Notes: a model not told the origin generated them from the sequence alone. Shown: positions 1 to 55,082, counted from the stretch's first letter. The stretch: DNA of 64,000 nucleotides from Sphaerodactylus townsendi (GCF_021028975.2 NC_059425.1:96906001-96970000); one strand, 5' to 3'. Numbers and translations are program-made.

Positions 1-93
1 TTCCTCCTTGTGTGGGGACTCAGGTTCAGCAGAGCTTGGGTTACCAGGCACCTTCAGGAAGCTTGGCTCCTTCGATGGCTGCGGGCCCAGTAG

Positions 94-1110
94 TTCAGGG
101 TCCAGAGTTGGCAGGCTCTTCCAACTGGAGTCCAGAGTTGGCAGTCAGGGCCCAGTAGTTCAGGGTCCAGAGTAGGCAGTCAGACTGGAGGGGTACGAGC
201 CAGAGCCAGACGCAGGGGGAAGAAGGCCTCTCGTCGTTCTCATTGGTCCCCTAGCTCGTCCTCATCGGGTGAGTCTACAGATGAGGAGTCCGCCCAGGCA
301 GCAGGGGACTATTGGGAGAGAGGGGGAAAGGTGCCAGCTCTTCCCCTGTGGATCACTCAAAGGAGAAAAGGGGAGCTTGCAGTGGAGGACAGTGCCAGGA
401 ATGCGGGGGCTTCAGCCTTCTGCTCGGCATGGGATCTTGGAGACCCTCCAGGCTCCCATTTGACGAGAAAACTGAGAGAAAGAGCCCTGGACGGGTACTA
501 CGTGGACCTCTTCACGGTTTTGCGGCCGGAAGAGGATCCTGAAGAGTCTGGTTCCCGTTCGGCCAGAAGGAAAAGGGAACGCCCGGAAAAAGCTGAGCGT
601 TCCTTTGACAACTGGTCGAAAGGGTTTGCAGAATATATGGCCCTAATAGGAGCCGCTTACCCTTTAAGGGCTTGGCACCTAGCTGCTCATTGGGCCAATG
701 TTCTGAAGGCCCGGTCCCTATCAGGGGATGCAGCGGCCATGAAGTACGATGAAGCATTTCGTAAGAGTGCATCGCATCGTCCTGGGTGCAGGTGGGATCT
801 CATCCACGATCAAACGTGGATGACAAATGTTATTAAAATTACTCCTAGTGGGGCTGAGGGGCTGAGAAGAAAAGGGACTGGTCAGAGGGATCCTCCCCGT
901 CTTGCCTGCTGGGCCTTTAACCAAGGTTCCTGTAGGAAAGACAAGTGCAGATTTGAGCATAGCTGTTCTAGGTGCTTTGGAGCTCACACCAGGATACAAT
1001 GCCCACAACTGGCTTGGCCTCCCTTTCAACGTGGCCGGAACCCTGGCTCCGGCGGCTCTAAGAAGGACAGTGGTGGCCAGGGAGGATCCTTCCCCATCCA
1101 GAAGGCCTGA
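94..1110 (+). CDS. Gag-like ORF1 of the YR retrotransposon (C-terminal part) with CCCH/CCHC zinc-finger cluster
   Basis: Frame 1 is open from 94 (after TAG 91-93) to TGA at 1110. It contains YDEAFR..RWD followed by CWAFNQGSCRKDKCRFEHSCSRCFGAHTRIQC, typical of Ngaro/DIRS ORF1. Upstream continuity is broken by a 65-nt duplication. Confidence 0.85.
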   Translation, partial: FRVQSWQALPTGVQSWQSGPSSSGSRVGSQTGGVRARARRRGKKASRRSHWSPSSSSSGESTDEESAQAAGDYWERGGKVPALPLWITQRRKGELAVEDSARNAGASAFCSAWDLGDPPGSHLTRKLRERALDGYYVDLFTVLRPEEDPEESGSRSARRKRERPEKAERSFDNWSKGFAEYMALIGAAYPLRAWHLAAHWANVLKARSLSGDAAAMKYDEAFRKSASHRPGCRWDLIHDQTWMTNVIKITPSGAEGLRRKGTGQRDPPRLACWAFNQGSCRKDKCRFEHSCSRCFGAHTRIQCPQLAWPPFQRGRNPGSGGSKKDSGGQGGSFPIQKA

Positions 1111-1120
1111 AGTCCCGTAG

Positions 1121-2729
1121 GTTTTGCAGCGTCTCGCCCCTTCCCCGGTGCGTGTACAGCCTTTATGCCAGTGGCTAGAAAGGTATCTGGGTCAAGAAGA
1201 CGCACAGTATTTAAAGGAAGGATTTCAATTGGGCTTTCAAATCCCCTTTTCAGGGAGCAGGGTGGCAACCTCAGCTCCCAACTTAAAATCAGCCAGGGAA
1301 ATGCCTGTGGTAGTGGCTGCCAAGATTGCAAAGGAATGCTTGGCAGGTAGAATCGTAGGTCCCTTCGCAGAGCCTCCGTTACCCAACCTTAGGGTTTCCC
1401 CCATTGGGGTGGTCCCCAAGAAGGCCCCAGGGGAGTATAGGATGATCCAGCATTTGTCCTACCCCGCAGGGCGGGTCAGTGAACGACTTTATCGACCCGG
1501 GCATTTGCTCGGTCCGGTATGCCACTTTGGATGAGGCAGTGAGTCTCATCCGGGAGGTGGGAACAGCCTCGCTGTTAGCGAAATGTGATATACAGTCAGC
1601 TTTTCGGCTGCTGCCCATACACCCCAGGGACTTTGAACTTTTAGGCTTTCAATTTGGTGGACATTGGTATGTCGACAAATGCATGCCCATGGGATGCTCT
1701 ATAGCTTGCGCAGCCTTCGAAAAATTTAGCACCTTTTTGGAATGGGCGATCAAGGATCGCATGCCATCAACAAAAGTCACTCATTATCTTGATGATTGTT
1801 TATTTGTAGGTGCAGCTGGCACTGACGAATGTGTGGTGATGTTGTCAGCTTTTCAGGACTTGGCGGCCGAGCTAGGGGTCCCTTTGGCGGCTGACAAGAC
1901 TGAAGGGCCCGTGTCTTGTTTAACCTACTTAGGAATTCAGTTAGACATGGTAGCAGGAACATCTTCCCTGCCCCTCGACAAGCTGACAATACTACGCACA
2001 TTGATTGGAGACACCTGTGCAAAAAAGAAGTGCAAGTTGCGGGAAATACAGTCCCTGCTCGGGCACCTTAATTTTGCCTGCAGGGTGGTCTCCCTGGGAA
2101 GGGCCTTTTGTTCCCGCCTTGCCAGGGTCATGGCGGGCCACTCAGTCCCCCATCATCACATCAGGGTGACTTCAGGTCTTCGTCAAGACCTAGGGGTATG
2201 GTTACGTTTCCTGGAGCATTATAACGGGGTTTCCTTTTGGCAAGTTCCTTGGAAGCTTCAAGATAGTTTTCAGGTTCACACTGATGCAGCTGGTTCCATA
2301 GGTTTTGGTATTTATTTTAGGGGCCAGTGGTGTGCAGGGGAGTGGCCACCAGCGTGGACTCAGACCGGAATTTTGCGGGACATGACTTTTCTGGAGTTGT
2401 TCCCTCTGGTGGCTGCGGTTCACATCTCGAAGGAAGTGTTTCGCGACCATGCAGTTAAATTCTGGTGTGACAACCAGGCTGTGGTCAGGGTGGTAAACTG
2501 GCAGTCCAGCCGGTCTGAGCGAGTGATGTGGCTAGTAAGAGAATTTGTAATGGTATGCCTGACTAACAACATCTCTTTTAAAGCTGTTTTCCTGCCAGGT
2601 ATAACTAACAGTATAGCTGACGCTTTGTCTCGTCATCAGGTCAGCCGCTTTCGCTCCCTAGCTCCCGATGCCAGCCAGTTTCCGGAGAGGTGTCCAGACC
2701 ATCTGTGGTGTCTTGGCGGCAGTCAATAG
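1121..2729 (+). pseudogene. Reverse transcriptase / RNase H ORF with a single 1-nt frameshift near 1469-1474
   Basis: ORFs 1124..1534 and 1479..2729 join as SPIGVVPKK..YRMIQHLSYPAG/GSVND. RT motifs are KCDIQSAFRLLPI, PMG and YLDD. RNase H motifs are TDAAG, ELFP, WCDN and NSIADALSR. Confidence 0.92.
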
Positions 2730-3622
2730 CCGAAGGTGTCTTGCAGTCACTGGCTCCAGCTACTCATCGCGCGTATGAAGGGGCTCTGAGCACCTTCTTT
2801 GCTTTTGCGGCATCCATCGGCGAGCCTGTCCGTCAGGGGATTGCTAAGGACTTGGTGCTCCAGTACCTGGTTGATCTAAGGGACCGTCGAATGGCTGCTC
2901 GGACTATGAAGGTCCATTTGACGGCCATATCCTTTTTTAGCCAGGCCCTGGGAATCACCGACCATTCCCACTGTTTTGAAGCTCAAAGAGCCGTGGCTGG
3001 ATGGCAGCGCGCTTCCCCCAGGCCACAAGACAGTAGGCGGCCCATTACGAAGGAGCTCCTGGGAACTCTACTTGATGCCACAGACTCAGTTTGTGACTCT
3101 GCCTATGAGGCTACGCTATTCCAAGCCTTATTTACTTTGGCCTTTTATGGGGCCTTTCGGTGTAGCGAGCTAGTTGCCCCATCCACTACATCATTGGCTC
3201 CTATGGCTCTGCAAAGGGTCGATGTGTCCTTGGTGGATGGGAACTTGCTTATATGGCTGGCGGGGTCCAAAACTGACCAGCGTCGTCGGGGAACGAGAGT
3301 AACATTGTCCCCCTCCCCACCAGGGTCACCTTGTCCAGTGGTTCGCATGGCTGCATTTTTGGCTGTCCGTCCTGATGGGCAGGGTCCACTGTTCATCCAT
3401 AGCGATGGATTAGCAGTGTCCAGATACCAATTTACAGTGGTTCTGCGGCATTGCTTACAATTTTTGGGCCTCCCTGCTGAACAGTTTGGTTCCCACTCCT
3501 TTCGAATCGGAGCGGCAACCACAGCCTCTCAGGAGGGCCACTCTGCAGCTGAGATTCAGGCTATAGGCCGCTGGAGGTCTTTGGCCTATCGTGTGTATGT
3601 CCGGCCTCACCTTTTGTTGTAA
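2690..3622 (+). CDS. Tyrosine recombinase (phage-integrase family) of the YR retrotransposon
   Basis: Catalytic residues are in order: R (FYGAFRCSEL), K (SKTDQ), HxxR (HSFRIGAAT), W (GRWRS) and Y (YRVYVR). The ORF overlaps the RNase H end by 40 nt. The true start codon is uncertain. Confidence 0.93.
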   Translation: MSRPSVVSWRQSIAEGVLQSLAPATHRAYEGALSTFFAFAASIGEPVRQGIAKDLVLQYLVDLRDRRMAARTMKVHLTAISFFSQALGITDHSHCFEAQRAVAGWQRASPRPQDSRRPITKELLGTLLDATDSVCDSAYEATLFQALFTLAFYGAFRCSELVAPSTTSLAPMALQRVDVSLVDGNLLIWLAGSKTDQRRRGTRVTLSPSPPGSPCPVVRMAAFLAVRPDGQGPLFIHSDGLAVSRYQFTVVLRHCLQFLGLPAEQFGSHSFRIGAATTASQEGHSAAEIQAIGRWRSLAYRVYVRPHLLL

Positions 3623-3638
3623 CTCTGTTCTTTTATAG
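3623..3638 (+). promoter_or_regulatory. Candidate 3' splice acceptor for the hydrolase ORF
   Basis: ctctgttcttttatAG: a polypyrimidine tract plus AG (3637-3638) between the YR stop codon and the hydrolase domain. Confidence 0.55.
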
Positions 3639-3643
3639 TTCCG

Positions 3644-4240
3644 GTGGCCCGTCGTTACCAAGTTTGGCTGGTTGGCCACAGTATAGTGCACTGGGCCGGG
3701 CGTTACGCAAAGAAGTCTGGCTGGGGAGAACACCTGGGTCTGGACACCTCCGTGGACATTCGCTGGCTGGCGAGGCAAGGCATGATGTGGCCTACTCTAC
3801 TCCTCCGGTTGCGGAACTCCATTCTTCAATTCGGCTTCCCTGATGCAATGGTAATACAACTGGGGGAAAATGACATTTCCTCTTCCAAGGGAGTAGCGTT
3901 GCAGAACTCCATGAGGGATGACTTGAAGTTGATCCACTGCAAGATGCCGAAGACCAAGCTGTTCTGGTCGTGCTTACTAGAGCGGAGGACTTGGAGGAAT
4001 GCCGTGGCTCCGGCCAGAGTTAATAAAACCAGGTCTAAACTGTGTCGGTCCGCAGCCCAGTTGGTAATGAACATGGGAAAGGATGTTATTCCCCATGTTG
4101 ATTTATCTCATGCTTTACCAGCATTGTTTTTGCCCGATGGAGTCCACTTATCGGATTGGGGCCAGGACATCTGGTTACATGATGTCTGTCATGCTCTGCT
4201 GCAGTGTGCTTTCGCGGGTTCAAGCACTCGAGCTGGCTGA
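3644..4240 (+). CDS. SGNH/GDSL-family hydrolase (esterase-like) accessory ORF
   Basis: Block I is VWLVGHS (Ser), block II Gly is in RQGMMW, block III is QLGEND and block V is DGVH. There is no ATG upstream of the catalytic Ser. Confidence 0.85.
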   Translation: MARRYQVWLVGHSIVHWAGRYAKKSGWGEHLGLDTSVDIRWLARQGMMWPTLLLRLRNSILQFGFPDAMVIQLGENDISSSKGVALQNSMRDDLKLIHCKMPKTKLFWSCLLERRTWRNAVAPARVNKTRSKLCRSAAQLVMNMGKDVIPHVDLSHALPALFLPDGVHLSDWGQDIWLHDVCHALLQCAFAGSSTRAG

Positions 4241-4718
4241 GAACTGGTTCTGCTCTGATGCAGTGACTTTGGCGTGCACGCACTGAGCTGTGTGACTCTG
4301 GGCTTCTTACAAGTTGAAGGAAGGAGCTGTTGGTTTAACAACAGCCTCGGTGGCGGTGAAGCATAAGAGCACGATCCTATTTGGGGAAGGCAGTAGCTTG
4401 CGTGCTGAACCTTCCCCACCTCGGGGGCCTCCATATGAGGTCTGTGGTAGCGATAGAGCTCTTGTAAACAAAGCCTTGGGGCCGTGCTGAGAGCTCACTG
4501 CCCCGCAGGGAGGGGTGTCACAAATTGGGTTTGCGTCCATGTGGCATCTAGTAACTTCCTGTTCCAGTTCCCTTGGGGGATGTGCCGGACAGGGGTTCTG
4601 TCCGAAGGGCCTAAGGGGTCAGCTTGGGCTGCCCTATAACCAGGTTCAGCGGTTTGCTACCTGGGGGCCAGGATGTGCTCTGTTATGCTCGCCCAGCTTC
4701 AAGGTTTTGGTTATGTTA

Positions 4719-4724
4719 AATAAA
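4719..4724 (+). promoter_or_regulatory. Polyadenylation signal of the retrotransposon
   Basis: AATAAA followed ~35 nt later by the GT-rich tract gtatgtgttagtgtttttggttgg. Confidence 0.55.
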
Positions 4725-5095
4725 ATTTGGGCTGCGGCCGATTTATTTCCAACAAGTATGTGTTAGTGTTTTTGGTTGGAATGAGTCTCCACACATTCCC
4801 ATGCAATATGACTTGCACTCCTTAGCTAACTATTATGTACCTGAAATTCATTTCACTATCTATTGTGAAAAACCACATTATGCACTTACTTTGAGAGTCA
4901 TGGGGGAGGCGCCAGAGGGTGATTTTCCATCCCTCCAGGTGTGCGCTCGGTGCGCTCGGTGTGCAATGCACCCTTGCCACTCTGCCACTGGTGCCCAGGG
5001 CATTTCCCTGGATGTCCCCATGGGAGCTTCGCCACTGCTTTCAAGCTCACCTATATGCAATATGAGAATAATGCTGGCTTAACTTACATAGGCCC

Positions 5096-54953: not shown

Positions 54954-55082
54954 NNNNNNNNNNNNNNNNNNNNNNNNNNNNNNNNNNNNNNNNNNNNNNN
55001 NNNNNNNNNNNNNNNNNNNNNNNNNNNNNNNNNNNNNNNNNNNNNNNNNNNNNNNNNNNNNNNNNNNNNNNNNNNNNNNNNN
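54954..55082. other. Assembly gap (129 N)
   Basis: Run of n. Confidence 1.

Follow-up and report, generated by a model that had tools for sequence, protein, structure and literature searches.

How does a retrotransposon express a recombinase and a hydrolase whose reading frames mostly lack a start codon of their own, and what does the hydrolase contribute? Both questions are raised by the element found at the start of a 64,000-nucleotide (nt) stretch of the Sphaerodactylus townsendi genome (GCF_021028975.2 NC_059425.1:96906001-96970000; hereafter the window, with positions counted from its first letter). The element contains gag, a reverse transcriptase/RNase H (RT/RH) open reading frame (ORF), a tyrosine recombinase (YR) and a fourth ORF, ORF4, which encodes an SGNH-hydrolase domain. 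We propose, with a probability of roughly 0.75, that this is a dead copy of a Ngaro-like element in which ORF4 is spliced to the front half of Gag, the fusion binding membranes or lipids on behalf of the RNA-protein particle. The type of element and its cargo are known; what appears to be new is the proposed expression route, which is well supported but unconfirmed by RNA. If the splice model is true, the protein of interest is a Gag fusion, not a 200-amino acid (aa) enzyme, and the model names its exact junctions.

A Ngaro-like retrotransposon with an SGNH-hydrolase ORF

The element is almost certainly a Ngaro-like tyrosine-recombinase retrotransposon (order DIRS). As the original prediction held, it is of the Ngaro type and has a gag with a zinc finger, RT/RH, YR and a fourth ORF; these follow one another in this order, all on the plus strand of the window, and DDE integrase and protease gave no match. 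Among the Pfam profiles, RVT_1 matched with an E-value of 3e-13, and Phage_integrase (2e-4) and Lipase_GDSL_2 (3e-4) matched below their curated cut-offs. Downstream of RNase H, no methyltransferase was detected (no Pfam Dam match at E ≤ 0.1), and the RT/RH ORF stops about 33 codons past the last RNase H motif. The position of the SGNH-hydrolase ORF 3' of YR is a trait of the vertebrate members of the group (PMC9210276).

The extent of 1..4792 given originally needs correction at both ends: the element begins outside the window, about 1810 nt upstream of it (gag ATG at -703), and extends to 4804-4806. Split direct repeats in the arrangement A1...B1-A2-B2 were complete in 7 of the 19 copies examined, and in 6 of these 7 the repeat pairs were 96-100% alike (one A pair was only 78% alike). 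The other 12 copies, the window copy included (the rest are among L022-L040), stop precisely after B1; such copies could have originated by recombination between B1 and B2, by assembly collapse, or by the recombinase resolving the repeated B|A junction. An AA dinucleotide marks this junction as well as most element ends. Two neighboring classes were considered and rejected: DIRS1-like elements require inverted terminal repeats with an internal complementary region and a methyltransferase, whereas here the terminal repeats are direct and no methyltransferase is present, and PAT-like elements, which combine split direct repeats with a methylase (PMC7192593), share the repeats, but a hydrolase stands here where the methylase is expected.

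The genome holds many related families, with ORF4 identities of 43-91%, and most of the 40 further loci retrieved have the same gene order. The closest named proteins come from geckos (88%) and other lizards, as expected of a squamate genome. The family had been called young, which is true in so far as the near-identity of the repeat pairs in full copies attests to young insertions; the nearest sampled relatives of the window copy are only about 90-92% identical to it.

The hydrolase ORF is not a new cargo, because the layout is that of a published Ngaro-like type: an SGNH ORF 3' of YR, "with no proven function," has been reported in Xenopus Ngaro families (PMC9210276), and PMC6681497 and PMC7192593 likewise refer to the hydrolase of such elements. 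The Xenopus tropicalis elements DIRS-53_XT and DIRS-54_XT share with the window element the order gag, RT/RH, YR, SGNH, the A1...B1-A2-B2 repeats and the lack of a methyltransferase. They differ in coming from an amphibian rather than a squamate, and in that the accessible text of PMC9210276 treats the ORFs as overlapping, does not contain the string "splic" and does not describe a conserved donor or acceptors.

Conserved splice signals in gag and upstream of YR and ORF4

Splice signals were compared across 60 best-scoring loci drawn from 1060 DNA and 2752 protein candidates; these were chosen for open ORF4 frames and are thus not a random sample. The comparison suggests that a single donor in the middle of gag (268|269) would be joined to either a YR acceptor (2639|2640) or an ORF4 acceptor (3638|3639), yielding GagN-YR and GagN-SGNH fusions (GagN, the N-terminal part of Gag; about 220-350 aa of it, followed in GagN-SGNH by about 190 aa), while the unspliced RNA would provide Gag, RT/RH and the genome. 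ORF4 is very probably made as a spliced exon of this kind rather than as a free-standing ORF, and YR is probably made by splicing onto the N-terminal half of gag.

The predicted donor, CGG|GTGAGT at 266..274 (with 268 as the final base of the exon and phase 1 relative to gag), follows an Arg/Lys- and Ser-rich stretch. In 41 of the 45 loci in which a conserved gag anchor could be placed, representing all 10 anchored groups, GTGAGT precedes this anchor by about 230 nt, as compared with an occurrence in 30 of 2430 control windows; it is in phase 1 in every locus with an unbroken frame. At the donor, the DNA does not change although the amino acids that it encodes do (G/S-E-S/Y/L), and the Glu codon at this site is always GAG, against 496 GAG and 415 GAA elsewhere.

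The predicted ORF4 acceptor (3616..3638) consists of a branch-like TGTAAC over the YR stop codon, a pyrimidine tract and TAG. Across the set, the pyrimidine tract and YAG directly after the YR stop are in phase 1 in 56 of the 60 loci, and the region is pyrimidine-rich in 56 of 60 loci compared with 405 of 3610 control windows. Upstream of YR, a phase-1 YAG lies within the RNase H motif ADALSRxQ (predicted acceptor CTGAC...CAG, 2617..2639 in the window copy, phase 1 in the YR frame and pointed to by both sequence and gene-model junctions); all 41 Gln codons at this site are CAG, compared with 68% elsewhere. No Met precedes the first conserved motif of YR in 51 of the 60 loci. That YR may be frameshifted or overlapping is stated in PMC3783388, whose accessible text says no more on the subject. 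For RT, which is in frame +1 relative to gag, neither an acceptor nor a Met was conserved in the 22 loci listed. Apparent open frames of 530 aa spanning YR and SGNH were rejected as fusions, a stop codon closing YR in the stop-to-stop listings checked.

The main competing account of these data is that ORF4 is a free-standing esterase translated from its own ATG, or by reinitiation or frameshifting after YR, with the splice-like signals being incidental. This we consider unlikely: outside the group of the window copy, an in-frame Met upstream of ORF4 was found in only 3 of 37 loci (missing from 34), the window copy itself has no Met before block I of ORF4, and the frame offset between YR and ORF4 differs from family to family whereas the acceptor phase stays at 1. 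Frameshifted YR ORFs of the kind described in PMC3783388 are a precedent in its favor.

The splicing proposed here resembles that by which retroviruses produce the subgenomic env mRNA and spumaviruses express pol, where an upstream donor is joined to downstream acceptors and, as in the present model, pol is skipped. It differs in that the donor is located in the middle of gag and would contribute 220-350 aa, that splicing would yield a recombinase and an SGNH domain, and that there is no env. A literature search, whose matches were mostly seen as listings, turned up no description of splicing from gag to either SGNH or YR. Spliceosomal introns in some YR elements are reportedly mentioned by Poulter and Butler (2015) and by Goodwin and Poulter (2004), so that a prior description of such splicing is possible.

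Gene models, RNA reads and genomic copies

Gene models from other lizards provide a second line of evidence. In 26 models from Podarcis, Zootoca, Lacerta and Paroedura (28 were flagged among 153 rows, 2 of them host genes), an Arg/Lys-rich and then a Ser/Thr-rich segment immediately precede the SGNH domain. Many of the lizard SGNH models start with MAPKK and extend about 230 aa to the junction, and several gecko gags start likewise. Furthermore, of 29 extended YR models, 4 match an SGNH model from their own genus (Hemicordylus, Podarcis, Paroedura) in the segment before the junction, with scores of 278, 161, 124 and 115 against shuffle maxima of 59-62; such paired junctions, from a gag segment to YR or to SGNH, argue against independent translation of ORF4. 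In addition, one 1677-nt Logan contig (P0139, run type unspecified) encodes a gag-like N-terminus and an SGNH domain in a single frame.

Several observations weigh against the splice model. The loci compared are related, so the counts of splice signals do not represent independent trials, and the donor and the YR acceptor both lie within coding sequence; the lizard gene models are predictions. In 19 of the 23 copies of the window copy's own group, an in-frame ATG does occur just 5' of ORF4, as expected of a free-standing ORF. The RNA data point the same way: no splice joint was among the matches listed for three RNA runs of which 6-24% each was aligned to the element (1487, 705 and 273 reads on it), and another alignment likewise showed none among its listed matches. 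In run X5, about 36 reads cross the pyrimidine tract before the ORF4 acceptor and hence are unspliced; these reads may come from passive copies, because both strands were hit and most reads were less than 95% alike to the element. Finally, no unambiguous spliced genomic copy was recovered in two pattern searches, one of which produced a single match (L034) and the other seven matches, all unspliced. The L034 match (L034:5957-7570, on G000:C7) is a short copy in which the A repeat and about 70 nt of YR are joined precisely to the ORF4 acceptor, and is ambiguous, splicing and a microhomology-mediated deletion being indistinguishable. Given that the three RNA runs showed no junction, we infer, rather than observe, splicing.

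A further locus, L104:5242-7067, lacks RT and most of YR through an internal deletion but still has ORF4, the end of YR including the acceptor, and gag with the donor.

The SGNH domain of ORF4 and its proposed role

The predicted ORF4 exon covers 3639..4240 (ORF 3623-4240) and encodes all four SGNH blocks, GHS (3674), QGM (3776), GEND (3863) and DGVH (4136), with the characteristic residues Ser (3680), Gly (3779), Asn (3869) and Asp-x-x-His (4136-4147). The SGNH fold anticipated in the original prediction is borne out by the predicted structure (pLDDT, the predicted local distance difference test score, 92.3), whose top structural matches are SGNH hydrolases, the best being 3p94 (Z 19.6, root-mean-square deviation 3.1 over 176 residues). 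Fold and blocks I, II, III and V thus place ORF4 in the SGNH superfamily, with Pfam scores (Lipase_GDSL_2) that stay below the curated cut-offs. The domain is basic, with an isoelectric point of 9.8.

ORF4 is present across the loci and evolves under constraint rather than neutrally. For pairs with a proportion of synonymous differences (pS) above 0.1, the ratio of nonsynonymous to synonymous substitution (dN/dS) was 0.13-0.22 (0.35 for the near-identical pairs below this threshold), compared with 0.09-0.17 for the C-terminal half of gag, 0.09-0.14 for RT and 0.14-0.25 for YR. These values refer to loci covered to at least 90% and readable in a single frame without stops (17, 23, 25 and 51 of the 60 loci were kept; RT 23, YR 25, ORF4 51), and saturation is close in the bin of most divergent pairs. 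The low dN/dS indicates that ORF4 is a maintained part of the element.

Under the splice model, GagN-SGNH would place the basic Arg/Lys stretch of Gag beside the basic SGNH domain and could anchor the RNA-protein particle at acidic membranes, ester hydrolysis being optional. We put this membrane-binding role forward tentatively, by analogy with ZfL2-1, a LINE (long interspersed nuclear element) whose ORF1p esterase (PDB 4c1b) is active and whose binding to acidic liposomes survives mutation of the active site (PMC3905857). In both cases, the structural protein of a retroelement has a basic SGNH domain preceded by an Arg-rich motif; in ZfL2-1, however, this protein is the product of a single ORF, in an element without long terminal repeats, and has a coiled coil, whereas the proposed fusion would be spliced and made beside a complete Gag. 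The similarity between ORF4 and the ZfL2-1 esterase was detected by structure (Foldseek E-value 1.3e-6) rather than by sequence (phmmer E-value 0.91), at an identity of only about 19%. No PTAP, PPxY or YPxL motif was found in the 17 open GagN parts.

Alternatively, the splice may be real and its product mainly an enzyme that hydrolyzes an acyl ester, of a lipid or a small molecule, needed by the element, a reading that we regard as plausible albeit not the favored one. The complete set of Ser, Asn, Asp and His is retained in 46 of 54 full-length ORF4 reads, in families with identities down to 43%, and the activity of the ZfL2-1 esterase (PMC3905857) fits as well. The earlier description of ORF4 as a catalytically complete esterase does not hold universally: in one Ngaro family (L125-L135, L139), 12 of 12 loci have Glu in place of the block III Asn, and 8 of 12 have Arg in place of the His. 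Despite this loss of catalytic residues, the donor persists in 11 of 12 loci of the family, for which reason lipid binding is favored over hydrolysis; a domain related to ORF4 that was captured by the host gene TSG101 also lacks the catalytic His (see below). The tolerated decay, along with the fact that the fusion would drop the Gag core and the zinc knuckle, could also indicate that splicing is mainly regulatory, diverting RNA from RT or yielding a dominant-negative Gag, with the SGNH fold being secondary. This appears improbable, given that the protein-level constraint on ORF4 is as strong as that on YR and that ORF4 relatives are found across squamates and amphibians.

Returning to the spliced, membrane-binding fusion, we lean slightly toward a broader proposal, that vertebrate Ngaro elements use retrovirus-like alternative splicing to join one basic-tailed, RNA-binding Gag exon to either YR or a membrane-binding SGNH domain, recreating the layout of the LINE ORF1p-esterase, and that ORF4 was repeatedly captured by host genes. 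The splice model would address how the start-less recombinase and hydrolase of Ngaro elements are expressed and, if the tether reading is true, lipid or membrane binding would be a need common to unrelated retroelements.

Capture of the SGNH domain by host genes

An SGNH domain related to ORF4 forms the end of TSG101 isoform models in squamates (many lizards and snakes), as an alternative last exon. In the present genome, this exon (L136:7869-8460; G000:C2:83669868-83670458) has a phase-1 acceptor, lies between TSG101 exons and has the His replaced by Leu. It branches outside the S. townsendi element families in the tree, and no YR match was found beside it in the three stretches retrieved. 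Repeated host capture of ORF4 would be expected if ORF4 is, as proposed, a ready-made terminal exon; the splice model would thus account for the recurrence of the SGNH domain as the last exon of host genes.

ZNF318-like proteins of the leopard gecko and of cyprinid fish (P0021, P0043-P0045, P0026, P0084; the fish versions also on Logan contigs) likewise end in an SGNH domain. The gecko and cyprinid domains are far apart on the tree, which suggests separate captures. Degenerate SGNH copies, from one to six per protein, are found in other proteins as well.

Lesions and remaining features of the window copy

The window copy had been described as nearly intact, which does not hold: the element starts 1.8 kb before the window, gag is frameshifted and the A2-B2 repeats are missing. 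The N-terminal part of gag, of low complexity and with its ATG 703 nt upstream of the window, ends within 1..175, where its frame is closed by a TAG (173-175). The cause is a net gain of 55 nt at about 126-180 compared with other copies, which shifts the frame upstream of the splice donor; the duplication reported previously in gag is real, comprising two 32-nt copies spaced 65 nt apart (83..180), but 65 nt is not the size of the gain. The C-terminal part of gag (94..1110) includes the Arg/Lys- and Ser-rich stretch, the conserved core and a Cys/His knuckle from 907. A 48-nt tandem repeat in the N-terminal part of gag (L021:5880-6045, window -124 to 42) differs in copy number between copies.

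The RT/RH ORF (1121..2729, as 1121-1475 and 1446-2729; YLDD at 1785, RNase H motifs at 2277-2630) is split by an extra base near 1475. Both this frameshift and the TAG in the RT frame at 1118..1120, each suspected at the outset to be a lesion, are private to the window copy among the 14-15 covering copies (the TAG was seen in 0 of 14). The predicted YR exon (2640..3622; ORF 2621-3622) has its conserved motifs at 3158 (R), 3494 (HSFR) and 3566 (GRW) and its stop at 3620-3622. Private indels at 4204-4229 alter the last ORF4 codons. As assembled, the window copy is unable to make Gag, RT or the proposed Gag fusion. Some of the indels may be assembly errors, because copies that are about 99% alike over the core in terms of substitutions still differ by more than 100 gap openings.

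The B repeat (4352..4806, with AATAAA at 4719-4724) closes the element with ...CATGC(AA), and no A2-B2 follows. Outside the element, the window contains a run of 129 N at 54954-55082.

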